From a virus, in IMG/VR virus record IMGVR_UViG_3300034190_002401, positions 21,459-85,458 of that record: a stretch of 64,000 bases of DNA; one strand, 5' to 3'. The notes beneath the pieces are model-generated. The model was not told the origin of the DNA. It worked only from the letters and a program-made list of their open reading frames with translations, and ran no database searches. Position numbers and translations under genes: made by a program. This document shows positions 25,916 to 46,153 of this stretch, in pieces (the first letter of the stretch is position 1; every line of letters begins with the position of its first letter).

Positions 25916-25932
25916 GGCTTTCCCATTTAAAG
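25916..25932 (+). promoter_or_regulatory. Viral early promoter, copy 1 (GGCTTTCCCATTTAAAG)
   Basis: TTTAAA box 20 nt before ATG 25952. Confidence 0.8.
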
Positions 25933-25951
25933 TCTCAACACATGAGAGTCG

Positions 25952-26707
25952 ATGGCCAAGAAATCAGACATCCTAAGAAGCATAAAGACGACCGCCGAGT
26001 TCCTAGGGAACTCAGACAGACCTTCGGTCTGTACTCTCAGAGTAGACTCATTGTCTACTCTAAAGAGGAACACCAAAGGTGTTCAATACACAAGGAAAAG
26101 CCTTAGGGCTTTTGCCAAAGCAGTACTGACGGAACGTCAGTCCTTCAGAGAAGGTATCTACATCCTTAAGGATGTAAACATCAAGGCTCTGAAAGACTCT
26201 CAACTCGGAGAGTTGCTTTCGGCTACTAACCCCAATGGGGATAGTAAGTATTACACCACAGTCCGAAGGATGACCTATCAGAACATCCTTGCTGATGCCA
26301 TAGCATCAGCAGAAGAAGAAGATGAGCCTGAGGCAAAGCCTCAGAAGAAGACAACCAAGAAGGCTAGGAAGCCTAAGGCTTCCAAGAAGCCTAAACTCAC
26401 ACCTGTTGAAGAGGAACTCTTCGATGAGGATGGCAACCTTGACCCTCAGCCAAAGGCTGAAGCAAAGCCAAAGGCTACCAAGCCAAAGGCTTCCAAGGTC
26501 AAGAAAGCAGTACCCAAAGGTACTGTCACCTTGACTGCCGTTATCAACGGCAAGAAGAGAGAAGCCACACTGCCAAAGGCAGACTGGGAAGGAAGCAACC
26601 ACTCCCAATGGGAGTTCAAGGCTGATTCCAGAGACATCCCTACCAAAGGTAGGAGCAAGAAAGAACTTGCAGTGCTCGTTGGAGTCCATGACTCCATCTT
26701 CGAGTGA
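25952..26707 (+). CDS. Lys-rich putative DNA-binding protein (first early gene)
   Basis: KPKA repeats; possible Rho-N/SAP-like C-terminus. Confidence 0.8.
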   Translation: MAKKSDILRSIKTTAEFLGNSDRPSVCTLRVDSLSTLKRNTKGVQYTRKSLRAFAKAVLTERQSFREGIYILKDVNIKALKDSQLGELLSATNPNGDSKYYTTVRRMTYQNILADAIASAEEEDEPEAKPQKKTTKKARKPKASKKPKLTPVEEELFDEDGNLDPQPKAEAKPKATKPKASKVKKAVPKGTVTLTAVINGKKREATLPKADWEGSNHSQWEFKADSRDIPTKGRSKKELAVLVGVHDSIFE

Positions 26708-26709
26708 AT

Positions 26710-26950
26710 CGAAGATTCCAACACACAAGTGTTCGGACATACGTAAGTGTTGGAGAGTGAGTCTAACGACTCGCTCTTCAGCATGCCAACTGACCTGTGC
26801 TCCCACGTGTTAGAACACACACAGGTTGCCCCCCAAAAAAAACGTCAAACTCCGAGAGGCATAGCCTCCCAGTGCTTTGGCTTATCAATGCCTAGCCTTC
26901 GGCTTAGGCTTCTTCTCCAGCACATACGTGTGTTGAACACGTGCTGGTAT
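26710..26950 (+). ncRNA. Putative structured non-coding RNA
   Basis: 16-bp stem 26748-26783 whose three non-Watson-Crick pairs are all G-U on the plus strand; further hairpins include a C(UUCG)G loop near 26895. Confidence 0.4.
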
Positions 26951-27230
26951 ACATCTACACATATACGTATACGTGAATACGTGTTGCCTTTCCTGTGTGT
27001 TGGATACCTTTGGTATAACTATCCAACTGTCTAACTGTATTGTCTATACAATAGACTGTACATACATATATGTAGAGACTACAATGAAACTTGTATTCTT
27101 AGACACATGTATATTGTATGAATGAACCATCGGACTATTGAACATGAGACACATCAACATGCACGCAGGAAGGAAATGGAATACGTATGATTGGAATCGT
27201 TTAACACTCATGCAATAGAATCAACTTCGT

Positions 27231-27252
27231 GGCTTTCCCATTTAAAGGAACA
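27231..27252 (+). promoter_or_regulatory. Viral early promoter, copy 2
   Basis: GGCTTTCCCATTTAAAGGAACA, TATA 20 nt before ATG 27267. Confidence 0.85.
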
Positions 27253-27266
27253 TAATAGTAGCAGCG

Positions 27267-27554
27267 ATGCCGATGGTAATCAGTGTAAACAAAAACGAAA
27301 GAAGCCCTGCTAACGAATGCCGATATCCCAACACGATTGTTGTAAGACCGAGGTCTGACTTCCGTATGTTGGGAAGTGGAATCTCAGTGTCGAGTTCCAA
27401 AACATACACAGCAATTGACGCTGTCAATCAGCCAGACTGGAAGACCAGAGGTTTGGTCTTCATCTTAGATGCCGAAGGAGATACAACTAACTTGGGTTTC
27501 CTGATTGACAAACACGACTATGTTGTGGTCGATGATGATGAGGTGGTTCAATGA
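27267..27554 (+). CDS. Hypothetical protein
   Basis: 95 aa, directly after the promoter. Confidence 0.7.
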   Translation: MPMVISVNKNERSPANECRYPNTIVVRPRSDFRMLGSGISVSSSKTYTAIDAVNQPDWKTRGLVFILDAEGDTTNLGFLIDKHDYVVVDDDEVVQ

Positions 27555-28456
27555 GTATTGAACACACGAGACTTCTGACAACCTCCCGTAAGAGATGGGT
27601 TGGACTGGAGTACTCCACTCTAGTGGACAAGATGAAGTGGGTTGATGTCCCAACACACATAGGTGAATGGCTGGAAGCCATTGGTGGGACTTGGGACTTG
27701 GGTTGGACTATGCCGAAGGGCTTGACCAGTTTCATGGCTGACAAAGACATGTCCGTGTCCCAACTTGATACTGTGTTGAAGTGGTTCGTTGACCACAGTG
27801 GTCACTGCTTCACGTATTACTGCCGGAACGAACATCCGTTTGGTAGGAGATACAGAATGTCGAAGAAGCCATTTACACACAAGTCTCACAACTACTCTGC
27901 AAAGGGATTGGCTGGAACCATCCAAGACAACCAGTTCTATGTGAACACAAGTGTGTTCGGTGATGGTGCTATCACCATGGACAATGCAACACTCAAGGAT
28001 TGGTACAACCAAGTGTTGGTTGATTTGCCCAAGGCGAGGTTGCAAATGTTGTTAGCAAACGACAACGAGAAAGTTGAGCAAGTGACAAGCAACTATGCAG
28101 ACCTTGCGGTCTACGACTCGAAACTGAGCAAGAGACTGGCGGAGTTAGACATACACAAGTTGCTGAAGGTGACCATTGAGAGCCACTTCGACAACATGCT
28201 CCACGAGAGTTGGGACATGCATCCGTTGGCTAAGGCCGATGACTTCGTGGCGACACTCAAGAGTGACTACTTGATTGACACACAGAGCATGTCCTTCGAT
28301 GAGCAGATTGAGAAGGTCAAGGCTGCCAACACACAGGTGAAGCAACTCGGAGCGAGCGTGTTCAGCAACATACTTGCGATTGAGTCAGCCAAGGAACAGG
28401 CACTGGCTAGCATAGCCAGTCTAGCAACTACAACACAGGAGAGTGAAGAGGAATGA
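27551..28456 (+). CDS. Hypothetical protein
   Basis: 301 aa, ATGA-coupled. Confidence 0.8.
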   Translation: MSIEHTRLLTTSRKRWVGLEYSTLVDKMKWVDVPTHIGEWLEAIGGTWDLGWTMPKGLTSFMADKDMSVSQLDTVLKWFVDHSGHCFTYYCRNEHPFGRRYRMSKKPFTHKSHNYSAKGLAGTIQDNQFYVNTSVFGDGAITMDNATLKDWYNQVLVDLPKARLQMLLANDNEKVEQVTSNYADLAVYDSKLSKRLAELDIHKLLKVTIESHFDNMLHESWDMHPLAKADDFVATLKSDYLIDTQSMSFDEQIEKVKAANTQVKQLGASVFSNILAIESAKEQALASIASLATTTQESEEE

Positions 28457-30816
28457 GCATTGAGAAGATGATGAATATGGAAAAGAACACACAGGTGATT
28501 GAGATGAACGACGAACACAAGACATACACAGACGAAGACACGTGGAACACACACAGGTTGAAACTGGTGAAGTCACAGAAGGCTATCGCCTTAGACCACT
28601 ACCGGGACTTCGGCAAGTCTTACGCAGGCTACCGTGTTCCCAAGACGCTCTACGTGTTGGTTGACGACGACCCTTGGGAGGTTGTCAAGTGGTGTGAGTC
28701 TACCATATCAGTGGACACTGATATCTTCGTGAGGACTTGCCCTCTCAATCCAAGGCACGGCGTGTTGGAAAGCACGAGGTGTGCCAACCACAAGAATGCC
28801 ATAGTCAAGACGATTCAACACCTACAGGCAGTCATGTTGGAACACGACCCTGAGGGTTGCTTGATTGTTCAGCCTTACCAACCTGCGATTGCCTCGTGTG
28901 TCCTTGCTCCGAACATGTATGTTGTATTCGGTGAGGGTCACGACGGAGTGACTGCCGGAACTAACTACTCTGACGCAGGTACATCTCTGATGTTCCCGCT
29001 ATCAGAGAAAGACCGTGTGTTTGAGGGAGCACTCGTCAAGATGAGCCTTGGAAGTGGACACATATACAATACCGACAAGCATGAGATTGAGATGGTCTTC
29101 AACGATGAGGAGCATTACAACAGACAGTGGGGTGACGATTACATCAATTCGGTCAAGGCAATACTCACACAGATACGTGGGTGTGACGAACACATACAGG
29201 TTGGGACACCACCGGAAGGAGTCAGCATCAACGGCTCTATCCCCTCTGGGGATGTAGTGGTGACTGAGACTGTGGTCATGACTGGACTTGAACAAGTCCA
29301 GTGGCTTGAGGAGAACATCACGAAGGAACTTTGTCCTGATGGCTTCGTTGTCGTTGAGCCTAACGGCTCTCTGTTGAGTCACATCAACGCACACTGCCGA
29401 ACACATGGCATCCCGTATGTCATAACAGACGAGGTGTGTGTTGGAGACACATGGACTGAGGTTGCTTCGGGATGGGTCATTCAGAACAATGACGGTGACT
29501 TCGTTGCCAATCCATACAACCCTTGGCAACACGTCAGTGCGTTCAGGGATGGGGTGACATACGGCAATGCACATTGGAACAGGAAGCAGTCAGCATTGTC
29601 TACGTTCTTCCATCAGTGGATGGGTCAGCCTTGCAACGACCCACAACTCAGTGCGTTCCTTGGTGGTGTGTTCTGTGCATGGATTGTCAAAGCCACAATC
29701 GGTGCGACTGTTGGAGAGATGAGACACGCTAGGTCTCAGAAGAAGAACTACCGAGTCACCATACCACTGGCCACCAACTCGTTCATGGGTGTTGAACCCA
29801 TGGATGATTGGGACATGGACAGTGGGATTGGGATACCTAACAGTCGAACACCATACCACCGATGGATGAGAGACACCATCGTGGATTGGGAACAGGCATC
29901 GCACCTTCTGACATACATGCATGACGAATACAAGACCGGTTGGTCATCAGCCTACGGTGGGCCGAAGTGGGGAGACGGAGCGGAGAAAGGTGCTCGTGTT
30001 GCAACACTCATACACCAACTCGTGAGTGCATCAGATGACGTGTTGGAAGACGTGGGCAAGGAACTGGTCGAAGCAGTCAACGCCTTGGAGAATGCACAGC
30101 ACAACAACGGTGGTCTACTGAACAAGTTCGGTGGTGATACCATGACTCACTTCAATGCTGGAACACATGGCTACGCAGAGAGTGAGATGAGGCATGCTCT
30201 TCACTCATACATGATTGCGATGGACATCGTGAACGACCGTGTTGAGACAAACGCACGGGAATGCAACATACTATGGGGAGATGTCGTTGCCTTCCTCGGC
30301 AAGAGTCCTTCGTACTTCAGGAACAACCCTGTGTTCAAACACACGGATGCACCCAAGGATGTTCAGGTTGTCCTTGACAAGTGGAACGAGACCGGAGACC
30401 TAACACACATGTTCCACGGCGACTCAAACCACCAGTACAACAAGACTGGCCACGAGTCTTACATCCCTACGGGACACAGTTGTGATGGTTCAGACACACA
30501 TCACTTCAACAAGGTGAGCATGCAGGCCAACAAGTCCGTGCCTTCCAACACATACGACGTGTTCCTGCTTGGGAAGCAACAGACGCAGGTTATCAAGGTC
30601 GAGTCAGATGTGGTCAAGAGTGTGAAGAAATTACAGGCACTGGTCGGCAACGACTGGAATCTATCGAACTTGATAGCACAAGTCTGTCAACACGTAGAGG
30701 ATGGAACATGGGAAGAAGTCGAACACTTGTGGGCTACGTATGTGTATGGACTTGAGACGAGTGAGTTCGTGACATACATGAACGCATTGAAACTAGCACA
30801 GGAGATGAAACAATGA
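28453..30816 (+). CDS. PEP synthase/PPDK-like dikinase (ATP-grasp + phosphohistidine swivel) with a novel C-terminal domain
   Basis: FVRTCP, LIVQPY, GEGHDGVTAG, EIEMV and LTQIR are ATP-grasp motifs; NGSLLSHINAHCRTHGIPYV is the His-swivel motif. Confidence 0.75.
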   Translation: MSIEKMMNMEKNTQVIEMNDEHKTYTDEDTWNTHRLKLVKSQKAIALDHYRDFGKSYAGYRVPKTLYVLVDDDPWEVVKWCESTISVDTDIFVRTCPLNPRHGVLESTRCANHKNAIVKTIQHLQAVMLEHDPEGCLIVQPYQPAIASCVLAPNMYVVFGEGHDGVTAGTNYSDAGTSLMFPLSEKDRVFEGALVKMSLGSGHIYNTDKHEIEMVFNDEEHYNRQWGDDYINSVKAILTQIRGCDEHIQVGTPPEGVSINGSIPSGDVVVTETVVMTGLEQVQWLEENITKELCPDGFVVVEPNGSLLSHINAHCRTHGIPYVITDEVCVGDTWTEVASGWVIQNNDGDFVANPYNPWQHVSAFRDGVTYGNAHWNRKQSALSTFFHQWMGQPCNDPQLSAFLGGVFCAWIVKATIGATVGEMRHARSQKKNYRVTIPLATNSFMGVEPMDDWDMDSGIGIPNSRTPYHRWMRDTIVDWEQASHLLTYMHDEYKTGWSSAYGGPKWGDGAEKGARVATLIHQLVSASDDVLEDVGKELVEAVNALENAQHNNGGLLNKFGGDTMTHFNAGTHGYAESEMRHALHSYMIAMDIVNDRVETNARECNILWGDVVAFLGKSPSYFRNNPVFKHTDAPKDVQVVLDKWNETGDLTHMFHGDSNHQYNKTGHESYIPTGHSCDGSDTHHFNKVSMQANKSVPSNTYDVFLLGKQQTQVIKVESDVVKSVKKLQALVGNDWNLSNLIAQVCQHVEDGTWEEVEHLWATYVYGLETSEFVTYMNALKLAQEMKQ

Positions 30817-31901
30817 AATGGAAGAAGTACCTTACAGGAAAGAATGGAGATGAGAAGATGAAACAGAGAAAGATATGCAAACACGAGACATGCCAGAATG
30901 ACGCACCGAAGGTCGGGGACTACTGTGCTACGCACAAGTCCAAGTCCAAGTCCAAGGGACACACGTATGTATCCAAGAATGGATGTCACACAGGCAACGT
31001 GCTTGTGTTCACAACACCTGAGGGTATCAAGGTCTACGGTGGTGGCTCAAGCCGTCAAGGTGGTTGGTGGTTGATGAACCCACTACCGGATGTTGCAATA
31101 GGTCCGAGTGAGATTGTGTCCAAGGGTCACAGGTATCTCAAGAGTGGTGACCATGACTTCCCCGAAGGTTGGAAGGCATCCAACACACAAGCGTCTGACA
31201 ACACGACTGCTGTGTTCAGCATCGACTGGCCGGACTACTCCATCCCTACGGGGCTGGGTCGTGAGTTCTGGCTCGCACTTGTTGAGGACATCTACACCAA
31301 GGGTGTCATGACTGTCTCTTGCCAGTGCATGGGTGGACATGGTAGAACTGGTGTGCAGTTGGCTATCCTTGCTCACTACCTACTGCCTGAGTCCCAACAC
31401 TCATGGAGGGATGCAGGTCAGTTGATTGACTGGGTCAGGGAACACATGTGTGTCCATGAGGTCGAGGCATCGAGTCAGCAGAAGTACATCGCTGATGTGT
31501 GTGGCTTGCCTGTTGGAGACTCACGTGTGTCATCCAGCAAGTGGGGTGGCTACTCAGGTGGATGGGGCAATCACTATGCGAGTATCAACACGCAGAGCAT
31601 ATACAAACAGGTGAATGATTCCCTTGAGGATGGCGACGACTTCGATGACTGGGAGTACACTGAAAGTGGTTGGTCAAGGAAGGATGATAGTGAAGAAACA
31701 GACGTGCTCGACAGGGTATTTGAGTGTCTGAATTGCGATGCTCAAGAAGTCATCGGGCCGCACATAGAGCGAGACAGCAACGGTGAGATACCGTGCATCA
31801 CATGTGGTAGTTCCAACATGATAGATGTGACAGACGTAGGTGTGGGTAAGGTTGACCTTTCCCATTTAAAGGAACAAGATAAGAAACAGGAGAGTGAATG
31901 A
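30813..31901 (+). CDS. Dual-specificity/PTP-family Cys phosphatase with Zn-finger extensions
   Basis: WPDYSIP acid loop, CMGGHGRTG P-loop, VEASSQ Q-loop. Confidence 0.9.
   Translation: MKWKKYLTGKNGDEKMKQRKICKHETCQNDAPKVGDYCATHKSKSKSKGHTYVSKNGCHTGNVLVFTTPEGIKVYGGGSSRQGGWWLMNPLPDVAIGPSEIVSKGHRYLKSGDHDFPEGWKASNTQASDNTTAVFSIDWPDYSIPTGLGREFWLALVEDIYTKGVMTVSCQCMGGHGRTGVQLAILAHYLLPESQHSWRDAGQLIDWVREHMCVHEVEASSQQKYIADVCGLPVGDSRVSSSKWGGYSGGWGNHYASINTQSIYKQVNDSLEDGDDFDDWEYTESGWSRKDDSEETDVLDRVFECLNCDAQEVIGPHIERDSNGEIPCITCGSSNMIDVTDVGVGKVDLSHLKEQDKKQESE
31855..31876 (+). promoter_or_regulatory. Viral early promoter, copy 3 (inside the phosphatase 3' end)
   Basis: ACCTTTCCCATTTAAAGGAACA. Confidence 0.8.
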
Positions 31902-33628: not shown

Positions 33629-35705
33629 GGCAGACATGTACACAGAGACGTACTACACGAATAACGACACACAGCGTAGGTATCCAAGACAGGCGAAGCG
33701 TGTTGCACTGTCCTTCCCATACAACCCTGAGATAAACAATGCCATGAAGACTGAGTTGAAGTCCCTTGAGGGATTCTACAACGTCAAGTGGAGCAACAAC
33801 ACATGGAGCGTGCGTTTCGACAGGGATGTGTTGCAGGTCACTGCTTCCATCTTTGAGAGGTTCGGCTACGACAGTTCACCTATCACTGAGCACATAGCAT
33901 CCGCTCCTTCAAACACGAGTACTGCGAGCAAGTGTTCAGCATACATCGTGGATGGTGCGTTGGCATTGGAGTGGCCTTTCATTAGGGATGAATCCCTGAG
34001 GGATGAGGTCAAGGAGATTGTCAAGGGCATTCCTAACAGGAAGTGGGACAAAGACAACAAGCGTTGGATGATACCGATAAAGCAAGCAGGATTCCTAGTC
34101 AAGAGACTGGAGGATGTCTACGAGCCACTGGCCACAGTGGTGAACGAACTTGAGGATGTTCAGATGTACATCACCAAACATGCGGAGCGTGTTGCAATCA
34201 GCAGTGCAGTGGAGTTGTCAAACTCACACACAGTAGATGATATGCAGAAGAGGTTGTCTGAACACTTCCACGAAGGCCGTGAGTTGTACCCCTTCCAATA
34301 CGTGGGTGTTCGCTTCGCTGAACTGGCAGGTGGTAGATGCCTCATCGGAGACGACATGGGCATAGGCAAGACCATCCAAGCGATAGCATACGCATCCCTT
34401 CACAGGGAACTATGGCCTGTGTTGGTGGTCTGTCCCTCTAGCGTCAAGTACAACTGGGCCAAGGAGATAGACACATGGCTCAAAGACGTGAGTGTCGAGG
34501 TGGTCAATGGCTTCAAGGGTGAGATAGCAGATGCTGACTTCACTGTGGTCAACTATGACTTGATGGGTAAGAGAGAGGAGCAACTCACGGGCATGGGATT
34601 CAACCTATGCGTGTTCGATGAGTCACACTTCCTGAAGAACAAGACAGCCAAGAGGACACAGGCTTGTCTCAACATAGGGAAGCAGTCACAGAGCGTGCTC
34701 TGTCTCAGTGGTACTGCCATAACCAGTCGGCCTGAGGAGTACTTCACCACGCTGAACCTACTCAGGCCTGTTGACTTCCCGTCATGGCTCAAGTATGTTC
34801 GGAGGTACTGCGATGCGTATCACAACGGGTTCGGTTGGGACACACGTGGCTCTTCCAACGAGAAGGAACTACACAATGTGAGTAGAGACTTCGTGCTTCG
34901 CAGACTGAAGAAGGAGGTCATGGAGGAACTGCCAGACAAGATAAGGCAGGACTTCGCAGTCGAGCCTTCGGCATCTGGGGTCAAGTCCTACCAGACCTTG
35001 CAGTCTGGGTGGTTGGATGAGTACAGGCAACACAAGCAGAACAACACACTCCCTGCGGGATTCGTGTTGAACATGCTCACGAGTCTGAGACATCACTGTG
35101 GGATGCTCAAGGTGCAGTCGGCTTGTGAATGGGTGGCTCAGTACCACGAACAGACAGGCAAGCCTGTCATCGTGTACACGCATCACAGGGATGTGTTGAA
35201 ACGAGTAGTGGACACACTCAACCCTGATTTCCTACGTGTTGCAGTCATCGAAGGTGGAGTGACAGCACAGAAGAGGCAGTCCATAATAGAGGACTTCCAA
35301 GCGGGGAACGTAGACGTGTTGGTTGCTAACATACTGTCGGCCAACATGGGAATAACACTCACCAAAGCAGACACGGTTGTGTTCGTGGAACGTGAGTGGA
35401 CTCCTGCCGTAGAGGAACAGGCGGAGGACAGAGTGAATAGGATAGGTCAGGATGCGAGTGTTGTTCACGCAGTCTACCTGTCTGTCTCCAACACGATTGA
35501 CGAGAGGTTCTCTCGCATCGTCTCTCAGAAGAGAGATGTAGTCAAAGGGATACTGGATGGAGGAGAGAAGGAACAGAGGAAGGCCTTGGCAACAGAGTTG
35601 CTCATGGGCATGGTTGATTCAGGTGAGATACCTGCGAGCATGCTAACCGATTTCATCGGTGGAAAAGGGTCTTCCCCATTTAAAGGAACAACAGAGGAGT
35701 GGTGA
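33618..35705 (+). CDS. SNF2-family helicase with HARP-like N-terminal domains (SMARCAL1-like)
   Basis: DDMGIGKT, DESH, LSGT, QAEDRVNRIGQ; two FPY...W..W repeats. Start uncertain (TTG 33618 or ATG 33636). Confidence 0.9.
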   Translation: MTLKADMYTETYYTNNDTQRRYPRQAKRVALSFPYNPEINNAMKTELKSLEGFYNVKWSNNTWSVRFDRDVLQVTASIFERFGYDSSPITEHIASAPSNTSTASKCSAYIVDGALALEWPFIRDESLRDEVKEIVKGIPNRKWDKDNKRWMIPIKQAGFLVKRLEDVYEPLATVVNELEDVQMYITKHAERVAISSAVELSNSHTVDDMQKRLSEHFHEGRELYPFQYVGVRFAELAGGRCLIGDDMGIGKTIQAIAYASLHRELWPVLVVCPSSVKYNWAKEIDTWLKDVSVEVVNGFKGEIADADFTVVNYDLMGKREEQLTGMGFNLCVFDESHFLKNKTAKRTQACLNIGKQSQSVLCLSGTAITSRPEEYFTTLNLLRPVDFPSWLKYVRRYCDAYHNGFGWDTRGSSNEKELHNVSRDFVLRRLKKEVMEELPDKIRQDFAVEPSASGVKSYQTLQSGWLDEYRQHKQNNTLPAGFVLNMLTSLRHHCGMLKVQSACEWVAQYHEQTGKPVIVYTHHRDVLKRVVDTLNPDFLRVAVIEGGVTAQKRQSIIEDFQAGNVDVLVANILSANMGITLTKADTVVFVEREWTPAVEEQAEDRVNRIGQDASVVHAVYLSVSNTIDERFSRIVSQKRDVVKGILDGGEKEQRKALATELLMGMVDSGEIPASMLTDFIGGKGSSPFKGTTEEW
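35669..35690 (+). promoter_or_regulatory. Viral early promoter, copy 4
   Basis: GTCTTCCCCATTTAAAGGAACA. Confidence 0.75.
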
Positions 35706-39084: not shown

Positions 39085-39196
39085 GCTCTCATGCAGATGG
39101 TGTGGGGCTAAGGTGCACTGGGGGCACGACCGAAGGGGAAAGTGCGATAGTTGTAGGCTTTCCCATTTAAAGGAACAAGAGAGGAGAGATGTATGA
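39074..39196 (+). CDS. 40-aa Zn-finger peptide
   Basis: MRNRLSCRWCG...KCDSCRLSHLKEQERRDV; fills the gap, ATGA-coupled to the next gene. Confidence 0.5.
   Translation: MRNRLSCRWCGAKVHWGHDRRGKCDSCRLSHLKEQERRDV
39156..39177 (+). promoter_or_regulatory. Viral early promoter, copy 5
   Basis: Perfect GGCTTTCCCATTTAAAGGAACA, TATA 21 nt before ATG 39193. Confidence 0.85.
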
Positions 39197-40645: not shown

Positions 40646-40663
40646 TTTACATTCCTTGATTGC

Positions 40664-40745
40664 TGTAGTCTCGTGGTGGCGGGGGCTACAAAAAGCAGTC
40701 ATCGGAAGTTTCGTTTGTGTTTTATACATCCCTACCGTCACCACC
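40664..40745 (+). ncRNA. Putative structured RNA element
   Basis: GTGGTGGCGG (40673-82) pairs with CCGTCACCAC (40735-44); TGTAGTC (40664-70) pairs with GGCTACA (40684-90). Confidence 0.35.
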
Positions 40746-40765
40746 AAAACACATGGATGTGATGC

Positions 40766-41077
40766 ATGATGGCTGAGAAGTATGTTGAACACACGTTGAC
40801 TACGAAGTCGTTTCTCCCCTATGGTAAGTTCATCAATCACATGGGAGAGATAGCCGAACTGTGTGAGGAAGTCATGTACATCACCTACAATGGTGAGGAA
40901 CGTGAAGTGCTTCTGGCTATGCCCGCTAAACCAGTTTTGGAATGCTGTCCATTGTGTAAGGGTAAAATACATGATGGGAGTGTGGTGGTAATTACCGACT
41001 CGCACAGTCTATTCCCATGTTGGGAATGCGAGCAGTTGGTGGAACAGGAAAACACAGGAGATGCAATAGATGAGTGA
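40766..41077 (+). CDS. Zn-binding hypothetical protein
   Basis: CPLC...CWEC. Confidence 0.65.
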   Translation: MMAEKYVEHTLTTKSFLPYGKFINHMGEIAELCEEVMYITYNGEEREVLLAMPAKPVLECCPLCKGKIHDGSVVVITDSHSLFPCWECEQLVEQENTGDAIDE

Positions 41078-41792
41078 GTTTGAAATAAATGAAGAGATGA
41101 AGACATGGGCGAAGAACCATTTCGATAACATGGGTATCGGTGGTGTGTGGAGTCCAGAAGGAACGGGACTGACATACCAGAAGGTGACAGACGACAGTTG
41201 GAAGGTGATTCGTATGATGAATCATCCTACAGTTCAGGAGAACCACATGAGGTTCTCTACAATCATGATGAGTGTTGGGATAAACATGGTCATGGGCGAT
41301 GAGGTGGCATACGACCCACCTGCATCATCTGAGGAAGCCTATGCACAGGAGACAGCACACAGGATGGAGATAGCGAAGTCTTGGGCGTGTTCTGAATGTG
41401 GACACAAACTAGCCGAACTGGATTTGGAGACGGCTCGCCCTAGTTTCGAGGGGGAACAGGAGATTCTACTTGAAGATGGCAACACACATGAGGTTGAGGT
41501 ATGGGCCTATGGTCTGTCATGCTCATGCGGTCATGTCACTAAGATAGACCCTGATGACTTCCATCTACTAGCAGGTGACTATCTGTTCATGAGGTATGTC
41601 AACAGCGAGGGAACTCTAAGACAATGTATGACTAGGAAGCAGATGGTCGAGATGGCTGACGCTGAGAATCCTGAGTTAGGTGTAGTGCTTGGGAGCAAAG
41701 ACCCAGACACAGGAGAGCGTGTTCCCTCATGGATGTGGGGTACGTACTGCATGAGTGTTGAGAGATGGGGACTGACTGACGAGGAGGAGTGA
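41070..41792 (+). CDS. Hypothetical protein with a Zn ribbon
   Basis: CSECG...CSCG. Confidence 0.75.
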   Translation: MSEFEINEEMKTWAKNHFDNMGIGGVWSPEGTGLTYQKVTDDSWKVIRMMNHPTVQENHMRFSTIMMSVGINMVMGDEVAYDPPASSEEAYAQETAHRMEIAKSWACSECGHKLAELDLETARPSFEGEQEILLEDGNTHEVEVWAYGLSCSCGHVTKIDPDDFHLLAGDYLFMRYVNSEGTLRQCMTRKQMVEMADAENPELGVVLGSKDPDTGERVPSWMWGTYCMSVERWGLTDEEE

Positions 41793-42073
41793 AGATGGGC
41801 GAAGAGCACGTCTGGCGTTCAGTGAGCATGGAAGGCAAGTGGAAGGATGGCAAGGGAGACGTTGCTGTCAGGCGTGTTGATTACTATGACAAGGTCTGGT
41901 TGGATTTCAGAATCATGAATGTTCAAGATGGTAAGAACCAACACACACGACACGGAGTCAGACTCACAGCAGAGCAAGTGAAGGAACTCATACCCAGACT
42001 TGTTGACTTCATCAATGAGTATGAAGACCAGAAAGAACAACAGGAAAGACAGCCCGAAAAAAATGTGGCTTAG
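41789..42073 (+). CDS. PC4/YdbC-family ssDNA-binding protein
   Basis: WLDFRI...HTRHGVRLTAEQVKEL. Confidence 0.75.
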   Translation: MKMGEEHVWRSVSMEGKWKDGKGDVAVRRVDYYDKVWLDFRIMNVQDGKNQHTRHGVRLTAEQVKELIPRLVDFINEYEDQKEQQERQPEKNVA

Positions 42074-42133
42074 GTTATCCTGTTAGAAATGAAAGTGAAA
42101 ACCCTGAGAGTATATGAACTAAGCAAACTACAG

Positions 42134-42148
42134 TTATAAGGCAACAAC
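42134..42148 (+). promoter_or_regulatory. Promoter variant TTATAAGGCAACAAC
   Basis: Intergenic, TATA about 25 nt before ATG 42165. Confidence 0.5.
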
Positions 42149-42164
42149 AAAATGAAAAGGAGAG

Positions 42165-42404
42165 ATGAAAGTGAAAGAAGAAAGAGCAACAAGTGTATCT
42201 CATGTTGAGTTTGAGATATTGAATGAATTAATCGAGACTGTAGACCTAGAGTCTCTGAAGCAGATTATGGTTGACGACAAGGTGACAGGCAAGCGTTGGG
42301 ACTCAGGTGCAAAGAACGTGCTCCTGTTGCTTGAGAACATGAAGGATAGGAGGCGACATAGATTGAAGCCTGACCATCCTGACTACAGGGGGAAGGAGAA
42401 ATGA
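42165..42404 (+). CDS. Hypothetical protein
   Basis: 79 aa with a GGAG RBS. Confidence 0.7.
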   Translation: MKVKEERATSVSHVEFEILNELIETVDLESLKQIMVDDKVTGKRWDSGAKNVLLLLENMKDRRRHRLKPDHPDYRGKEK

Positions 42405-42703
42405 TTCACTTCCGTATATTAGACAAGACGCTTTGCGGTGCTGACTACAAAGAGCCTAGCAAGAAAGTAGCGAAGGATGGTAGATTCTGTGATGAATGCA
42501 TACAGGTAATGTGGCAAGAGCAGTACAGGCGAAACACACTCATGCCATATGTCAGAAAGGCTAGCAAGAACAAACCGAAAGTAGAACCTGTTGAGGAGCA
42601 TGTAGTTGAGGAGATAACAACAAAAGGAAGTGGTTTGTTTTTGGCCGATTATAGGCTTTCCCATTTAAAGGAACAACATAGGAGAGGTGTGAAAACAGTA
42701 TGA
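42401..42703 (+). CDS. Hypothetical Zn-binding protein
   Basis: H...TLCG...CDEC. Confidence 0.65.
   Translation: MIHFRILDKTLCGADYKEPSKKVAKDGRFCDECIQVMWQEQYRRNTLMPYVRKASKNKPKVEPVEEHVVEEITTKGSGLFLADYRLSHLKEQHRRGVKTV
42654..42675 (+). promoter_or_regulatory. Viral early promoter, copy 6
   Basis: Perfect 22-mer. Confidence 0.8.
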
Positions 42704-43011
42704 TGAGTGAAAGAGAACAAGATGAAAGAGATGAATACAGGGCAGACGCTGCGTGGGAAGCCGCACAGGAAGATAGGTACTGGAACTGCGAGCATGAGAA
42801 CTGGTCTATTACAGACGAGGGTATCGTGGATGTCGAGAGTTGGAAGAACGGCAAGAAGTTGGATGAACCAATAGCGTGCATCGAAGTAGAGTGTGATGAC
42901 TGTGGTAGAACCAACTACCTGAGAGTACACTACAGCAGAATCCTAGAACTCCTGAGAGGAGTGGATTGGAGCAACGATGGTATAGACGAGGATGGGTGGT
43001 CTGAATGTTAA
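42700..43011 (+). CDS. Acidic hypothetical protein
   Basis: CEH...CDDC. Confidence 0.65.
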   Translation: MMSEREQDERDEYRADAAWEAAQEDRYWNCEHENWSITDEGIVDVESWKNGKKLDEPIACIEVECDDCGRTNYLRVHYSRILELLRGVDWSNDGIDEDGWSEC

Positions 43012-43262
43012 GTGAAGAGCAGAGCAGACTGAACATAGGTAGGACGATAATCAAGGCGATAGAGGAGCATGATGAGAAGTTCTACGAGGAGTACATCGAG
43101 AAGTACACTGAGTACCCCGATGAAGAGGCTGACAAGTACTACGATGGTACTGCTAACTACGATGACGACGTAGACATAGCAGAGATGAATGCAATCATCG
43201 ACATACTACACTACGTAGTCACCAACCATCACCCACACAAGGTAGGAGGTGTGGAAGAATGA
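43005..43262 (+). CDS. Acidic hypothetical protein
   Basis: D/E/Y-rich, 85 aa. Confidence 0.65.
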   Translation: MLSEEQSRLNIGRTIIKAIEEHDEKFYEEYIEKYTEYPDEEADKYYDGTANYDDDVDIAEMNAIIDILHYVVTNHHPHKVGGVEE

Positions 43263-43396
43263 GAGCGGGGAAGTTCGATAGACACGAGTCAGCAGTCGAG
43301 CGTAAACTCGACCGCATCATACAACTGTTGGAAGCACACTTGAAAATACTGACAGCCTTTTCTGTGGCTGAGATGTTATTGGAGGATGAGGAATGA
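43259..43396 (+). CDS. Hypothetical 45-aa protein
   Basis: Below the cutoff; ATGA-coupled on both sides. Confidence 0.55.
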   Translation: MRAGKFDRHESAVERKLDRIIQLLEAHLKILTAFSVAEMLLEDEE

Positions 43397-43605
43397 ATCA
43401 CGTGAGTATTGAAACCACATCAGGTAATACAAGCATCAGACTGTCTGATGTGTCGGCAGTCACACATACAGTCGAATCGAAGTATCTGAAGAAACATGCA
43501 ATATTGGACATTCACATGTCTAATGGTACGATATTTACAACCAAACCTATGAAGGTAGAAGAGGCTATCCTCTTTCAGAATCAGGTATGGAGTGGTGAAA
43601 GATGA
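43393..43605 (+). CDS. Hypothetical protein
   Basis: 70 aa, coupled. Confidence 0.65.
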   Translation: MNHVSIETTSGNTSIRLSDVSAVTHTVESKYLKKHAILDIHMSNGTIFTTKPMKVEEAILFQNQVWSGER

Positions 43606-43934
43606 TTGAAGACAAGATAAGGCAGATTGAGGAACAGGCAAGACAGATGATTGAGGAAGGTCAGAAACTGGCTAACCTGAAAGACACACTACAGAAGTTG
43701 GAGCAGTGTATGCAAAGCGGTCACGTGTGGCAACTAGGTATGGGTAACACATCAGAACTGTCACCTAATGGTGGAGTGCAAGGCAACATATCCGACGTGT
43801 TCGAGATACCACTGTATTGCACCAACTGCGGAGCGAGAGTCGTGATGAAGGATAGTGATGGGGCAGATGTGTACTACGCTATGGGCAACAAGGTAAGCGA
43901 GTTGCTTAGGAGTGATGATGATGAACAGGAGTGA
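43602..43934 (+). CDS. Hypothetical protein
   Basis: Coiled coil plus C..H..CTNC. Confidence 0.65.
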   Translation: MIEDKIRQIEEQARQMIEEGQKLANLKDTLQKLEQCMQSGHVWQLGMGNTSELSPNGGVQGNISDVFEIPLYCTNCGARVVMKDSDGADVYYAMGNKVSELLRSDDDEQE

Positions 43935-44308
43935 TGGAGATGGCAAACGAAGGTGGGAAACCAGAGCAGGTAATCGGTAAGTCTGAGATAGTCAAGCAGA
44001 CATACGAGACGCATGTTGATGATGGGAAGAAGAAGATTGCGTCTTCACTCGAACTACCACTGAAGGTGATTGTTCTCGCTGAGGTACTACAGAGAGAGGT
44101 GCAGAAGCATCCCCATTGGGATTGTAGGAGAACACCACACGCACTGTTCGTTGATTGCATATACATCGTATGCAAGAAGATTGGAGTCAAGGTGACATCC
44201 AGAGGGATAGCCACCAAGACCAAAGAGGCTCTGGGAGTAGGCACTCAACCGAGACCCAGAGAATGGTCGTCACAGTTTCAACAATTGATAGACAAGGTGT
44301 TGGGATGA
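43931..44308 (+). CDS. Single-repeat TFB/TFIIB cyclin-fold-like protein
   Basis: IASSLELP..V...A...RRTPHALFVDCIYIVCKKIGVKVTSRGIA resembles a TFB core repeat. Confidence 0.55.
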   Translation: MMEMANEGGKPEQVIGKSEIVKQTYETHVDDGKKKIASSLELPLKVIVLAEVLQREVQKHPHWDCRRTPHALFVDCIYIVCKKIGVKVTSRGIATKTKEALGVGTQPRPREWSSQFQQLIDKVLG

Positions 44309-45714
44309 ACTTCCTGAAGGCCTCTAGACTATACGAGTCACTGAGGCAGGGGAGCAACAAGAGAGAAGTGCTCTCGAAGATAGAGGATGAAAACTCCGCC
44401 CAAGATTTTTACAGACTGCTTTATCCACAGAAGGCACTACTGACGAAGAACGGACTAGCATCGCTTTTCGCTGAAGAGGTAGGTGTGTTCATTGATGTGG
44501 TTATGGATGTGTTAGGTGAGAACGACCTAGCACTCACACTCGCACAGGAGAGCAACGCCAGCACGTCACAAGGCTGGTCAGTCAAGGATGCGTTCAGGAT
44601 GATGGAGAGCCTATCTATGAATGCAGTCGAGGTGCTAGACACAGCACACAAGATGGATGAGATTGAAGCCAGACTGTTCTGGAGTCATGTCTTGGCCAAC
44701 AAGCCTCCAATCACATCACGAGCATTCGTGATACACTTAGGCATCAGCAGAGGCATCCACGCTGATGTGATGAAGAGACATGCGTCTCTGAAGGATGCCA
44801 CAGAACTTATTCATTTGATATTCCAAGACCCTCAGGGTCTAGACATACCAGACAGGTGGTATGAAGAACCTAATCTGGCTCTATCACCTAGGAGGTATCT
44901 ACCCTTTCATCCACATGATTCAATGGAGAAACTTGAGGAGTTTAATTACTCTCGATACCAAAGAATACCCAACAAGGGTTCGACAAAGATGTTGTATGTG
45001 ATTAGAGAGCAGGATGGAGTTCGCTTCGTCTGGAGAGACAGGAGTGGGAAGATTGTGTCCAACGGGCAAGCACCTGACTCGTCGTGGCTTCCAGACACTC
45101 CTATGATATTGGAGACGGTGACTGATGGCAATAACATACATGTGTTCGATGCTATCTTTCCAAGATACCACACTCTCACTCTTGAAGAGAGACTGGCTAA
45201 ACTACAGGAGCATACGAAAGACACACCTATCATTGTACACCAACCAACACGTATAGATAGTATGGTTGACCTAATTAGCAGTCTCAAAGATGATGAGGCT
45301 ATAAGATTCCCAGAAATAGGTGAATACAAACCACTGGAGAGTGGTGGCTACGTTATGATGTCATCTCTATCCAAGATGATTCTGAGACTACATTCTGTGA
45401 GAAATATACAGGACACCTTGTCTGTAAGACTCTCATGTGTTGATGGTTATGATGACTTCATAGTGGTTGGTGAGGTCGATGTAGTCAGTGATGTGAAGAA
45501 CACTATACGAGGTATGGTAGACAGGCTATGCACTATCATGCCCAGCAAAGACTGGGAAGACATACCAGACGAGATTATCATACCGATAGAGGCGGTTGTT
45601 CCCAGTATATTGAAAAACCCACTGTCAATCCCAGACGCCCTTGTCGTCTCAGCAAGAGATGATTTGGGTATGAGTGACGTGACTCAATACGTCGATTTCA
45701 TACATGCGAGTTGA
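44305..45714 (+). CDS. Degenerate ATP-dependent DNA ligase-like protein
   Basis: Ligase-DBD-like N-terminus MNFLKASRLYESL; RDRSGK, HVFDAIF and LTLEERLAKL; no KxDG. Start re-called at ATG 44305. Confidence 0.6.
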   Translation: MNFLKASRLYESLRQGSNKREVLSKIEDENSAQDFYRLLYPQKALLTKNGLASLFAEEVGVFIDVVMDVLGENDLALTLAQESNASTSQGWSVKDAFRMMESLSMNAVEVLDTAHKMDEIEARLFWSHVLANKPPITSRAFVIHLGISRGIHADVMKRHASLKDATELIHLIFQDPQGLDIPDRWYEEPNLALSPRRYLPFHPHDSMEKLEEFNYSRYQRIPNKGSTKMLYVIREQDGVRFVWRDRSGKIVSNGQAPDSSWLPDTPMILETVTDGNNIHVFDAIFPRYHTLTLEERLAKLQEHTKDTPIIVHQPTRIDSMVDLISSLKDDEAIRFPEIGEYKPLESGGYVMMSSLSKMILRLHSVRNIQDTLSVRLSCVDGYDDFIVVGEVDVVSDVKNTIRGMVDRLCTIMPSKDWEDIPDEIIIPIEAVVPSILKNPLSIPDALVVSARDDLGMSDVTQYVDFIHAS

Positions 45715-46153
45715 TACAATGACATTACATCCTGATAATTTCTGGTTTGGTTTAGGCTTCCTCTGTGCTGATTTGAAGTTCAACTTCAGCATCCAGAAGA
45801 GTGCCTCATCCGCAAATGGATTCAGGGTACTGCGTTCTATTTCGTTTCGCTCATATATAAAGCAACAACAAAGTAAAAGCGAAAATGGTTTTCTTTTTCT
45901 GAACGAGGTATTGGAGAAGTTCGGATTACCTTTTGATGAGAGAGTGACCAAGCAGAAGGACATAGAGAAGTGGATGACTATGATTGCTCACTTCAAGTTA
46001 GAGGACAGGCTACTAGACAGAGATGGCTATCTATCTCTGAAGTGGGTGCTGGACAACCCACCACCAAAAGAATATGAGACCTTCGTAGAATGGGTCAAAA
46101 ATGCAGATGAGAGGCTTTCCCATTTAAAGGAACAAGAGAGGAATAGTGTATGA
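45704..46153 (+). CDS. Hypothetical protein, possibly a degenerate LAGLIDADG fold
   Basis: FGLGFLCADLKFNFSIQK...GFRV. Confidence 0.55.
   Translation: MRVDTMTLHPDNFWFGLGFLCADLKFNFSIQKSASSANGFRVLRSISFRSYIKQQQSKSENGFLFLNEVLEKFGLPFDERVTKQKDIEKWMTMIAHFKLEDRLLDRDGYLSLKWVLDNPPPKEYETFVEWVKNADERLSHLKEQERNSV
46113..46134 (+). promoter_or_regulatory. Viral early promoter, copy 7 (replication operon)
   Basis: Perfect 22-mer, TATA 21 nt before ATG 46150. Confidence 0.85.

Follow-up and report, generated by a model that had tools for sequence, protein, structure and literature searches.

A 22-nt signal repeated seven times in a magrovirus-like genome and its probable role as a core promoter

Introduction

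A 22-nt sequence recurs before genes in a 64-kb stretch of an 85,458-bp virus record (the stretch is called the window below), whose gene content matches that of a group-A-type magrovirus. Do these copies mark transcription units, and which protein would read them? The first-pass annotation proposed a virus-specific regulon read by a dedicated factor. We found no paper on this repeated magrovirus signal in the literature. Our analysis partly confirms the observation as a whole and partly supports its interpretation.

Results

The search sequence GGCTTTCCCATTTAAAGGAACA, with up to 3 mismatches, has exactly 7 matches in the window, all on the + strand, as the first-pass annotation had listed them; the chance expectation is 0.00 (100 shuffles). 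The 13-nt core occurs in 7 forward and 0 reverse copies in the whole record, and the window copies are the sole ones in its 85 kb. A weight matrix built from the seven copies scores them at 34.5-41.5 bits and the rest of the window at 10 bits or less, with a top score of 19.8 bits in 100 mononucleotide shuffles. Scoring is thus all-or-none, no window site falling between 34 and 10 bits. Matches to bacterial-type promoters are at chance level (26 vs 23.1). All seven copies are on the coding strand, directly 5' of gene starts:

25916..25937, + strand: copy 1 (GGCTTTCCCATTTAAAGTCTCA), 3 mismatches, intergenic, with an orthologous copy in the relative G001; heads ORFs 25952-26707 and 26747-27034; TAAAG-ATG gap 19 nt
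27231..27252, + strand: copy 2, 0 mismatches, intergenic; heads ORFs 27267-31901 (4 genes); gap 19 nt, without a Shine-Dalgarno sequence
31855..31876, + strand: copy 3, 2 mismatches, within the 3' end of ORF 30813-31901, reading LSHLKEQ; heads ORFs 31898-35705; gap 26 nt, GGAG before the ATG, stop/start overlap ATGA
35669..35690, + strand: copy 4, 2 mismatches, within the 3' end of the SNF2 helicase ORF 33579-35705; heads the DUF932 gene 35711-36916 and the genes after it
39156..39177, + strand: copy 5, 0 mismatches, intergenic; heads ORFs 39193-42703; gap 20 nt
42654..42675, + strand: copy 6, 0 mismatches, within the 3' end of ORF 42401-42703, reading LSHLKEQ; T-tract 12 nt upstream; heads ORFs 42700-46153, the TFB-like gene among them
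46113..46134, + strand: copy 7, 0 mismatches, within the 3' end of ORF 45704-46153, reading LSHLKEQ; heads the clamp-loader (RFC) gene 46150-47103 and the replication block after it; gap 20 nt

Copy 1 lies where two gene arms diverge. We read the motif as a TATA box with one element upstream of it and a short one downstream. Direct reading of the upstream element, GGCTTTCCC, gives 7/9 pyrimidines, in agreement with its earlier description as pyrimidine-rich.

Four of the seven copies (31855, 35669, 42654 and 46113) are embedded in the 3' end of the preceding ORF. It had been claimed that four unrelated ORFs carry LSHLKEQ for this reason. They are indeed unrelated, since BLASTP matches are limited to tails of 9-16 aa, but only three of them encode the peptide; the helicase ORF uses another reading frame of the motif, giving SSPFKGTTEEW.

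The distance to the start codon falls into two classes. From the G of TAAAG to the ATG it is 19 or 20 nt at 25916, 27231, 39156 and 46113. Counted from the last A of TTTAAA it is 21-22 nt, so that the earlier figure of 20-21 nt holds within the counting convention. At copies 3, 4 and 6 the gap is 25-29 nt and includes a GGAG-type Shine-Dalgarno sequence. Of the 76 copies counted across 12 related sequences, an ATG-initiated ORF lies within 70 nt of 71, and in 29 of these 71 the ATG lies exactly 19-20 nt after TAAAG or TAAAC, often without a Shine-Dalgarno sequence. This spacing class fits leaderless mRNAs. Two points of spacing count against a promoter reading. The usual archaeal TATA box is centred near -26/-27 relative to the transcription start, a distance that would place the start 2-3 nt inside the ATG at the 19-20-nt copies; therefore either the host must use a slightly shorter distance or the box must lie 2-3 nt further upstream. 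With the canonical distance, transcripts starting from copies 3, 4 and 6 would also lack the Shine-Dalgarno sequence.

The fixed ATG spacing and a purine-rich GGAG stretch after 5/7 copies would also suit a signal acting in RNA, in translation initiation or in the processing of long polycistronic transcripts. Assembled contigs from RNA libraries do cross copies 3 and 4, although they are short, possibly derived from library DNA, and cannot show RNA ends. We regard an RNA-level signal as very improbable: the family-wide constant part is a TATA-like octamer with variable flanks; copies 1 and 2 lack a Shine-Dalgarno sequence; copy 1 sits at the start of an arm, where an upstream transcript is unexpected; and an Rfam search gave no match.

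Related viruses keep the motif at orthologous sites. G001 is collinear with the window at 88-94% nucleotide identity and retains 7/7 sites; G002 is a mosaic, collinear only from 33341 onward, and retains 4/4 sites in that part. Identity to G001 is 68-76% for the first genes (25952-28456) and at least 90% for most genes. Outside the concerted positions described below, the motif differs at 3 of 133 positions, compared with 8.5% (178/2105) in its flanks. From the window to G001, position 8 changes from C to T and position 12 from T to A, each in 7/7 copies; from the window to G002, position 9 changes from C to G and position 12 from T to A, each in 4/4 copies. The letters switched among these three close clades are thus positions 8, 9 and 12, in every copy, and in 4/4 other metagenome contigs that carry two or more copies the letters there are uniform. 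Positions 1-2 and 6 are mixed within genomes, yet preserved between orthologous copies.

Homogenization within a genome could indicate sites of recombination or module exchange kept alike by gene conversion, comparable to the promoter-stem-loop cassettes of T4-type phages, and the mosaic structure of G002 would suit such a history, as would the variant letters common to the copies of one genome. However, neither the mosaic boundary at 33341 nor the four indels relative to G001 (32307-32625, 37765-37970, 38494-38708 and 39803-40062) are at motif copies, and conversion tracts would erase the copy-specific letters at positions 1-2 and 6 that are kept across clades. A clade-wise switch in all copies, combined with persisting copy-specific letters, argues against gene conversion, to which we give very little credence, and for a sequence-specific reader.

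More distant relatives have their own most frequent word around the TATA core, for instance TTGACTATATAAACTGGAATAGA nine times, TTCACTACTTAAAGCAGCATCA about 12 times or GTTGATATATAAAGSAACA five times. The family-wide invariant part is the TATA-like octamer, with flanks varying by lineage. Judged from differences among viruses only, the signal is apparently private to the virus lineage. Since each lineage has its own flanks and 2-3 positions are switched in all copies, the flanks are probably read by a sequence-specific protein, not by TBP alone.

The window encodes a candidate for such a reader:

43934..44308, + strand: single-repeat TFB/TFIIB-like protein, 124 aa, candidate motif reader

Its gene lies in the same block as the motif, itself behind copy 6, and has orthologues in G001, G002, G005 and G004. 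The protein matches the Pfam TFIIB repeat (PF00382) with an E-value of 0.0018 and 18.7 bits, below the cut-off of 23.6, and a profile search against the PDB gives TFIIB at E 0.009. The structural model (pLDDT 79.5) has cyclin-fold matches with Z-scores of 7.4-9.1, and one source labels a 93%-identical protein TFIIB/Brf1. Its sequence matches the TFIIB cyclin repeat weakly but repeatedly, and its modelled cyclin fold can be aligned with repeats of TFIIB and TFB. Unlike the TFB/TFIIB family, it has a single repeat rather than two and lacks zinc ribbon and linker, and every score is under the curated cut-off. Two relatives, P0020 and P0021, have a CxxC...CxxC segment at the N-terminus; the window ORF upstream of the TFB-like gene has no significant similarity to this segment (E 0.039).

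Residues 55-101 of the TFB-like protein are identical across all three motif clades, so its core does not co-vary with the motif. In G007 (94% complete) a G004-like motif is present and the protein is undetectable; in L326/L310 the protein is present and the motif was not found. The invariant core and the motif without the protein in G007 leave a dedicated factor unproven.

Discussion

We consider it likely that a group-A-type magrovirus, one of the tailed viruses that infect marine group II archaea, uses the 22-nt motif as core promoter for its early and replication block. The copies with their placement, spacing, conservation and concerted variation are observed; promoter activity, start sites and the identity of the reader are what we infer here. 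Host TBP would bind the ATTTAAAG box, and a TFB-type factor would touch both of its sides, 9 nt before it (GGCTTTCCC) and 5-6 nt after it (GAACA). Host RNA polymerase would start ~21-25 nt after the box, at four copies on or beside the ATG, which would yield leaderless mRNAs. At the other three the start would fall just behind the Shine-Dalgarno sequence, which would then serve read-through transcripts of the upstream unit. The seven copies would define seven co-directional transcription units over 36 kb.

Of the earlier proposal, the virus-specific, promoter-like signal of a regulon is supported by strand, placement, spacing, conserved sites and lineage-specific versions; the dedicated factor is not, host TFB being equally possible. 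We lean slightly towards the participation of a virus-encoded protein, which would act as reader or regulator; otherwise the reader would be host TFB. That the TFB-like protein is this participant seems unlikely.

The motif could instead be an ordinary strong promoter used by host TBP and TFB only, its copies nearly identical through selection for maximal strength. The clade-wide switches would then come from other forces, such as loss of TTTAAA under restriction pressure or a host strain with a different TFB. From its placement, copy 1 must fire at the onset of infection, before any viral protein, and the core of SIRV2 early promoters is common to strong host promoters, as the available text of PMC11065993 describes. 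Restriction-type avoidance is extreme (GATC occurs 0 times in the window and 4 relatives, with 150-368 expected), the switch at position 12 converts the palindrome TTTAAA to TATAAA, which is not palindromic, and TTTAAA occurs once in G001 (83 kb). The lack of co-variation between the TFB-like core and the motif would also be expected. However, the depletion of TTTAAA is not significant beyond a 4-fold depletion of A/T runs (0 outside the motif vs 1.7-2.8 expected), and site avoidance leaves positions 8 and 9 unexplained. Host promoters usually form a graded series, in contrast to the gap between 34 and 10 bits, and here the flanks depend on lineage while the TATA core stays. We consider a host-only promoter possible but less likely than not.

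Alternatively, the flanks could be an operator: the promoter would be read by host factors, and a virus-encoded repressor or activator, distinct from the TFB-like protein, would sit across its TATA box and control the timing of the early block. The box is surrounded by a weak inverted symmetry, TTCC-N8-GGAA, although the 4-nt arms may be due to chance and other lineages lack them at the same positions. Copy 1 is preceded, 14 nt upstream, by the perfect inverted repeat CCGTTCC-AA-GGAACGG, which has the GGAAC half-site in common with the motif and is kept in G001. Regulator sites have been proposed in the virus-specific flanks of early promoters of SIRV2-like viruses and SMV2 (available text of PMC11065993) and, by its authors, for the repeats of HF2 (available text of PMC8707807). 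Among the ORFs that we scanned, Pfam gave no candidate DNA-binding regulator, and we find an operator doubtful.

The core promoter that we favour can be compared with several known systems. Promoters of T7-group phages have at least ~20 nt of near-perfect identity among copies, all-or-none scores, and the same few positions differing in every copy between related viruses. The magrovirus motif resembles them in all three respects but has a TATA box at its centre, whose distance to the start codon is archaeal. Neither this record nor 4 relatives (one 97% complete) gave a match to a multisubunit RNA polymerase domain, with a control that matched 14/14 genomes; a search for the T7-type polymerase family gave no match either, which carries no weight because its control matched 0/14 genomes.

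TBP and TFB together contact a span about as long as the conserved motif block. Like the canonical archaeal core promoter (Pyrococcus woesei TBP/TFB on BRE+TATA, PDB 1D3U), the motif has an A/T-rich octamer ~20-25 nt before the expected start and a direction that agrees with the genes. Unlike it, its upstream element is pyrimidine-rich and its information content is far above that of a general promoter. The archaeal BRE prefers G at -6 and A at -3 (cited in the available text of PMC11065993); pyrimidines at the expected purine-rich position do not match this element, which counts against a promoter reading.

A repeated virus-specific promoter sequence has been described for SIRV2 early genes. 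According to the available text of that study (PMC11065993), crenarchaeal viruses of this kind have a near-identical promoter core before all early genes, with virus-dependent flanks, and the early (anti-defence) genes that follow it are of unknown function, small and fast-evolving. The first genes behind the magrovirus signal are comparable, as their lower identity to G001 shows. The SIRV2-type core, however, is a canonical purine-rich BRE and TATA box that also precedes strong host genes, its virus-specific parts lying around the core. In the magrovirus the lineage-specific letters fall in the BRE position and in the TATA box, and the regulon extends to replication genes.

There is also a likeness in layout to HF2 and other haloferacalesviruses, for which the comparison draws on the available text of Russ, Pfeiffer and Dyall-Smith 2021 (PMC8707807). 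Repeats in HF2 have a length of 56-58 bp, are intergenic and carry extra alpha, beta and gamma blocks, whereas the conserved magrovirus block of ~22-24 nt is the size of a core promoter, overlaps coding sequence in 4/7 copies and is pyrimidine-rich at the BRE position. In both archaeal tailed viruses several near-identical copies are confined to the early-middle and replication part. HF2 class I repeats contain a BRE/TATA promoter and are conserved in sequence and position among related viruses, and for those in the early-middle block promoter activity and start sites were shown experimentally (PMC8707807). There too, the authors propose virus-encoded, sequence-specific factors.

Results

Gene content and close relatives

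The window holds the final 64,000 bases of an 85,458-bp IMG/VR record that is classed as linear and 72% complete. Its ORF map shows genes running leftward to ~25.6 kb and rightward from 25.9 kb. Pfam scans recognized the following products of the rightward arm:

33579-35705, rightward: SNF2 helicase
rightward arm: tyrosine-phosphatase-like protein, DUF932
rightward arm: pyrimidine-dimer glycosylase-like protein and PC4-like protein
46150-47103, rightward: clamp-loader ATPase
50636-53017, rightward: family-B DNA polymerase
rightward arm: PD-(D/E)XK nuclease and ERCC4/HhH nuclease
59005-60510, rightward: thermosome subunit (E 1.6e-130)

Passages of the founding magrovirus paper describe group A magroviruses as carrying a thermosome, an SNF2 helicase, a clamp loader and DNA polymerase B, and assign them to marine group II archaea (Philosof et al., 2017; PMC5434244). 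The gene combination predicted in the window is the one described for that group (PMC5434244). The top GenBank phage matches of the DNA polymerase in tblastn searches are haloarchaeal tailed viruses (24% identity), and blastn comparison of the replication block with GenBank phages returned no match. No tRNA genes were found in the window, and there were no matches to Rfam families. Among genome contigs, the thermosome query matched only one Altiarchaeales contig and NZQM01000180.1 (locus L181, 'MAG: Parvibaculum sp.'). The latter, a 9.6-kb contig in an alphaproteobacterial MAG, encodes a thermosome with 52% identity to that of the virus and is probably a misbinned magrovirus-like fragment.

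A helicase search identified two close relatives, G001 (95% amino acid identity) and G002 (93%), and three more at 43-49%. G001 is collinear with the entire window at 88-94% nucleotide identity, and G002 is a mosaic that is collinear with it only from 33341 onward. Two repeats were seen in passing. ORF 6002-7750 on the minus strand contains, at 6240-6320, a tandem array of 5-6 units of 12 nt (GGTGGCATTCCG-type), which G001 has too, and in the non-collinear early region of G002 (IMGVR_UViG_3300030110_002054, reverse-complement 38017-40531) the palindrome TACCATATGGT occurs five times, 500-760 nt apart.

Seven motif copies precede genes of the replication block

The first-pass annotation had described a 22-nt promoter-like motif repeated seven times on the plus strand, and a search allowing up to three mismatches returned exactly these seven sites, with 0.00 expected:

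25916, plus strand: copy 1, intergenic, at the divergence point of the two gene arms
27231, plus strand: copy 2, intergenic
31855, plus strand: copy 3, within an upstream ORF end
35669, plus strand: copy 4, within an upstream ORF end
39156, plus strand: copy 5, intergenic
42654, plus strand: copy 6, within an upstream ORF end
46113, plus strand: copy 7, within an upstream ORF end

The copies span 25916-46134, the early-middle or replication block, and no further copy exists on either strand of the 85-kb record. A 24-nt weight matrix built from them scores the copies at 34.5-41.5 bits and no other window position above 10 bits; the best score in 100 shuffles was 19.8 bits. The motif is also the most frequent 11-mer of the window. 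All seven copies contain the TATA box ATTTAAAG, lie on the plus strand ahead of plus-strand genes and directly precede a gene start on the coding strand. The four that are not intergenic are embedded in the last 10-16 codons of the upstream ORF, three of them with an ATGA stop/start overlap. It had been claimed that this forces four unrelated ORFs to carry the peptide LSHLKEQ. The ORFs are indeed unrelated and have only their tails in common; the peptide itself is found in three of the four, the helicase reading SSPFKGT in another frame. The 9 nt upstream of the box, GGCTTTCCC, are pyrimidine-rich, as had been noted, and unlike the purine-rich archaeal BRE. Positions -6 and -3 are T and C, where the BRE preference given in part of a published account is G and A (PMC11065993), a consensus that may differ from the host's.

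In the IMG/VR collection, the exact 22-mer had 0 matches. The 14-mer core gave at least 110 single matches, judged to be chance, and a degenerate 19-mer gave at least 116 stretches; among the matches listed, only G001 and G002 have several copies. The other 19-mer matches were rejected as further carriers of the motif, their context being unrelated phage coding sequence. Extra matches to the half-motif GGCTTTCCCA all lie inside genes (8 found, 3.15 expected). In the structural arm, 18 nt ahead of the GTG listed as the start of ORF 5610-5966, a single minus-strand site (5984-5995) matches the motif's right half, TTAAAGGAACAA. The left half beside it differs from the motif's, and the site may be a promoter of another class. 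Inside ORF 42401-42703, a T-tract at 42630-42640 (TTTGTTTTT in the window, CTTTTTTT in G001) precedes copy 6 by 12 nt and may serve as an archaeal-type terminator set just ahead of the next promoter.

The divergent intergenic region ahead of copy 1 contains several other elements. Six copies of GCGATTAAC are packed into 86 nt (25745-25830), in a stretch that is almost identical in G001 though the genomes differ by ~10% elsewhere; the array could be an origin or an operator array. A hairpin follows at 25841-25857, GGGGATAC-AA-GTATCCC in the window and GGGCTAAC-AA-GTTAGCC in G001, both arms having changed so that pairing is kept. A perfect inverted repeat, CCGTTCC-AA-GGAACGG, occupies 25886-25901, 14 nt before copy 1, and has GGAAC in common with the motif. 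Behind copies 1 and 2, four genes (25952-28456) are only 68-76% identical to their G001 counterparts at the protein level, most others being 90-99% identical. These fast-evolving early genes of unassigned function could be candidates for host takeover or anti-defence.

Spacing to the start codon and RNA data

A distance of 20-21 nt between the TATA and the next ATG had been reported for four copies, and within counting convention it holds: the G of TAAAG lies 19-20 nt from the ATG at four of the seven. The remaining three have longer gaps of 25-29 nt, and in them GGAG precedes the ATG by 8-12 nt. Alignment of the flanks shows that conservation extends in most copies as GGAACAA.A.AGGAG(A/T)GGTG, which is Shine-Dalgarno-like. 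We surveyed 76 copies of lineage-specific motifs in 12 related sequences, and for 71 of them an ORF of at least 40 codons begins with ATG no more than 70 nt away. Of these, 29 have a spacing of exactly 19 or 20 nt, often without a Shine-Dalgarno sequence, in a count that includes a few out-of-frame ATGs (one at copy 1 of the window, where the ORF list gives 19 nt). The archaeal TATA box is usually centred near -26/-27, and in the archaeal TBP/TFB core promoter transcription starts ~23-27 nt downstream of the box. A box centred at -26/-27 would put the start 2-3 nt inside the ATG, so the fixed octamer-to-start-codon distance resembles that of an archaeal leaderless-mRNA promoter closely but not exactly. 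Bacterial-type promoter patterns were at chance level (26 found, 23.1 expected), as were terminator patterns (15 and 13.2).

Two oligo-dT marine RNA libraries contain 5-8% of the sampled words, and three sediment libraries contain none. Assembly yielded 22 and 30 short low-depth contigs from sequencing runs X1 and X2, respectively, and none from X3 and X4. Copies 3 and 4 are crossed by contigs, and one contig starts 7 nt past the ATG that follows copy 2. Since they are possibly DNA-derived and starts, strand and level cannot be read from them, we drew no inference from these contigs. Placement, geometry and comparative data support well the earlier proposal of a regulon: the motif is, with good probability, its shared promoter element, the activity being predicted.

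Motif letters switch in concert between clades

The orthologous sites are kept in both close relatives, 7/7 in G001 and 4/4 in G002, all within the collinear part of the latter. Between the window and G001, position 8 changes from C to T in all seven copies and position 12, within the TATA box, from T to A in all seven; in the 150-nt flanks, 8.5% of aligned positions differ (178 of 2105). Compared with G002, position 9 changes from C to G and position 12 from T to A in 4/4 copies each, with flanks differing by 9.0%. A pattern scan of metagenome contigs for the copy 6 site found seven further contigs, and the four that have two or three copies are all uniform at the switched positions (three CCG-ATA, one CCC-ATT). 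The variants mark three clades, CCC-ATT, CTC-ATA and CCG-ATA. Position 6 (T or C) is mixed within genomes, and copies 3 and 4 have odd letters at positions 1-2 that their orthologues in other clades share.

Gene conversion among the copies would make them uniform, and its tracts, if they covered positions 8-12, should also have removed differences only 2 nt distant. Since copy-specific letters persist beside the uniform positions, conversion is disfavoured and parallel selection on specific letters, with the reader's preference differing between clades, is the favoured explanation of the clade-wise switching. The overprinted peptide tails read LSHLKEQ in the window, LPHIKEQ in G001 and LSDIKEQ in G002; they change along with the promoter DNA, so it is the DNA, and not the peptide, that is under selection.

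The switch at position 12 could instead come from restriction pressure against the palindrome TTTAAA, which the change destroys. GATC is absent from the window (~265 expected from neighbouring words) and from G001, G002, G004 and G005 (150-368 expected), the last two being more distant relatives, and this looks like strong restriction-site avoidance. TTTAAA itself is found in the window only within the seven motif copies. However, A/T runs are ~4-fold depleted overall (W6: 315 observed, 1293 expected) and only 1.7-2.8 TTTAAA are expected outside the motif, so its absence there is not significant alone; restriction pressure on TTTAAA also leaves positions 8-9 uncovered. This explanation is possible but unsupported, and parallel selection remains the favoured one. 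As A/T-only runs are so much rarer than base composition predicts and TTTAAA is confined to the motif, TATA-like words are scarce outside the signal. G005 also has 0 GATATC (29 expected) and 0 AATATT (24 expected).

The more distant relatives do not have this 22-mer. Each has its own version, on the gene strand, as the top repeated word of its genome: (C/T)TTGACTATATAAACTGGAATAGA in G004 (9 copies in a 38-kb fragment) and TTCACTACTTAAAGCAGCATCA in G005 (97% complete; ~12 copies in one block spanning the record's ends). Loci retrieved with the TFB-like protein have the versions CTTCACTACTTAAAGCAG, GTTGATATATAAAG(C/G)AACA, TTGATATATAAAGCAGCAAT and TTAGTATATAAAGCAGCA. Common to the lineages are a TATA-like octamer ending in AAAG or AAAC, a TT at ~6-8 nt on its upstream side and (G/C)A(A/G)CA immediately after it; all other letters are lineage-specific.

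A candidate reader of the motif

The block behind copy 6 includes a gene for a candidate reader:

43934-44308, plus strand: TFB-like protein, 124 aa, single repeat

It matches the Pfam TFIIB repeat at E 0.0018 and 18.7 bits, under the curated cut-off of 23.6 (17.5 bits in a six-frame search), and its profile finds TFIIB in the PDB at E 0.009. The predicted structure, a confident model (pLDDT 79.5), has six helices, corresponding to one repeat, with residues 1-13 disordered. The model has a cyclin fold, with Z-scores of 9.1 to yeast TFIIB repeat 2 (rmsd 2.5, 87 aligned), 8.2 to human TFIIB repeat 1 and 7.6 to P. woesei TFB; the full range against TFIIB/TFB repeats is 7.4-9.1, cyclins C, K and T score alike, and values under ~13 are common for helical folds, as the comparison tool cautions. 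Foldseek found no PDB match at E <= 0.001, its top rows being cyclin folds at E 0.065-1. With one cyclin repeat and no CxxC pair, the protein departs from the full TFB layout of an N-terminal zinc ribbon, a linker and a pair of cyclin repeats; two of its relatives, P0020 and P0021, have an N-terminal CxxC...CxxC segment. A 'split TFB' with the upstream ORF 43602-43934 (one CxxC, weak Zn-ribbon at E 0.005) was considered and dropped, that ORF showing no significant similarity to the N-terminus of the fused relatives (30 aa, E 0.039). ORF 44305-45714, which follows the TFB-like gene, has no Pfam match and always adjoins that gene in G001, G002, G004 and G005; its start is probably the ATG at 44305 (ATGA overlap) and not the listed TTG at 44155.

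Orthologues of the TFB-like protein are present in G001, G002 and G005, with a weak one in G004, and its alignment had no match in two scans of genome contigs. Between the three motif clades, its residues 55-101 do not vary. The most conserved segments (WDCRR.PHAL.VDC and GVGTQPRP) are invariant across lineages in which the motif flanks differ, so the part of the motif that is shared is the most that they could read. Only two changes, V102I and Q117E, set the ATT clade apart from the ATA ones. In ATA lineages further away residue 102 is V, and an association between residue and motif was rejected. One locus, L326, has the TFB-like protein and no motif that we could find. G007, a 94% complete record with a G004-like motif, has no TFB-like match by profile or by the G004 protein, the control of the second search being positive. 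Co-occurrence was assessed around clamp-loader genes at 51 of 80 loci, those of at least 14 kb. Judged by eye, a TATA-type family ranked first among the repeats in 7 of the 17 loci with a TFB-like match (8 counting G002) and was clearly present in 2 of the 34 without one. The approach is noisy, as Shine-Dalgarno sequences or start contexts frequently came out on top and the L311 motif was initially missed, and co-occurrence is confounded by relatedness, so we give it little weight. The TFB-like protein is the obvious candidate reader, and this evidence does not tie it to the motif.

As for the polymerase, PF00623 (multisubunit RNA polymerase) found nothing in this 72% complete record and four relatives, with the control positive in 14/14 genomes. 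PF00940 (T7-type RNA polymerase) had no match either, but its control was positive in 0/14 genomes. In Pfam scans of 47 window ORFs the sole polymerase domain is that of DNA polymerase B. With no domain of a multisubunit RNA polymerase found, the host enzyme likely transcribes from the motif, in agreement with a published generalization that polymerases are not encoded by archaeal viruses (PMC5569661).

Discussion

The conserved block of the motif, made up of 9 nt upstream, the octamer and 5-6 nt downstream, corresponds roughly to the DNA contacted by TBP plus TFB in the P. woesei ternary complex. On balance we lean slightly towards a viral protein taking part in reading the motif. That this protein is the TFB-like one encoded at 43934-44308 seems rather unlikely. 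Its gene lies behind a motif copy, and the protein therefore cannot be required in the first round of transcription. It is doubtful, a little more so still, that the TFB-like protein, alone or with a small protein encoded nearby, replaces or supplements host TFB on TBP-TATA complexes and steers the host RNA polymerase to a private promoter, the flank letters of which co-evolve with this factor, clade by clade. If true, the virus would have its own initiation factor, comparable to the sigma factors of phages or to T7 polymerase-promoter pairs, and Archaea would have their first known general transcription factor encoded by a virus.

In the surface ocean, magroviruses rank with the most abundant archaeal viruses (Philosof et al., 2017; PMC5434244); they cannot be cultured. 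A search of open-access papers and bioRxiv found nothing in print on magrovirus gene control, promoters or TFIIB, and the words 'promoter', 'motif' and 'TATA' are absent from the founding paper (PMC5434244). A sharply defined promoter would make it possible to map transcription units and probable early genes, among them the candidate takeover or anti-defence genes behind copies 1 and 2, and would supply a sequence tag with which to find and type related viruses. Three promoter variants in ~90% identical viruses amount to a natural experiment, making the question of who reads archaeal promoter flanks testable with just a few proteins and oligonucleotides. The motif also offers a case of regulatory DNA overprinted on protein tails, the peptide changing as the promoter changes.

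Similar elements have been described in other archaeal viruses. Work on halovirus HF2 reports class I intergenic repeats in seven copies in the early-middle genome, shown experimentally to be promoters and kept among related viruses (PMC8707807), and that on SIRV2 and other crenarchaeal viruses reports a virus-specific consensus around early promoters (PMC11065993). Like these elements, the magrovirus motif is present in several near-identical copies, all within the early-middle or replication block, and is kept in sequence and position among relatives (7/7 in G001, 4/4 in G002). Unlike the HF2 repeats, it is not consistently intergenic, 4/7 copies lying within upstream ORF ends. Compared with both systems, it is compact, partly overprinted on coding sequence and without a purine-rich BRE, and its lineage-specific letters fall inside the core itself. 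By analogy, the motif is the same kind of signal as in HF2 and SIRV2, in a different, uncultured and very abundant group of viruses.
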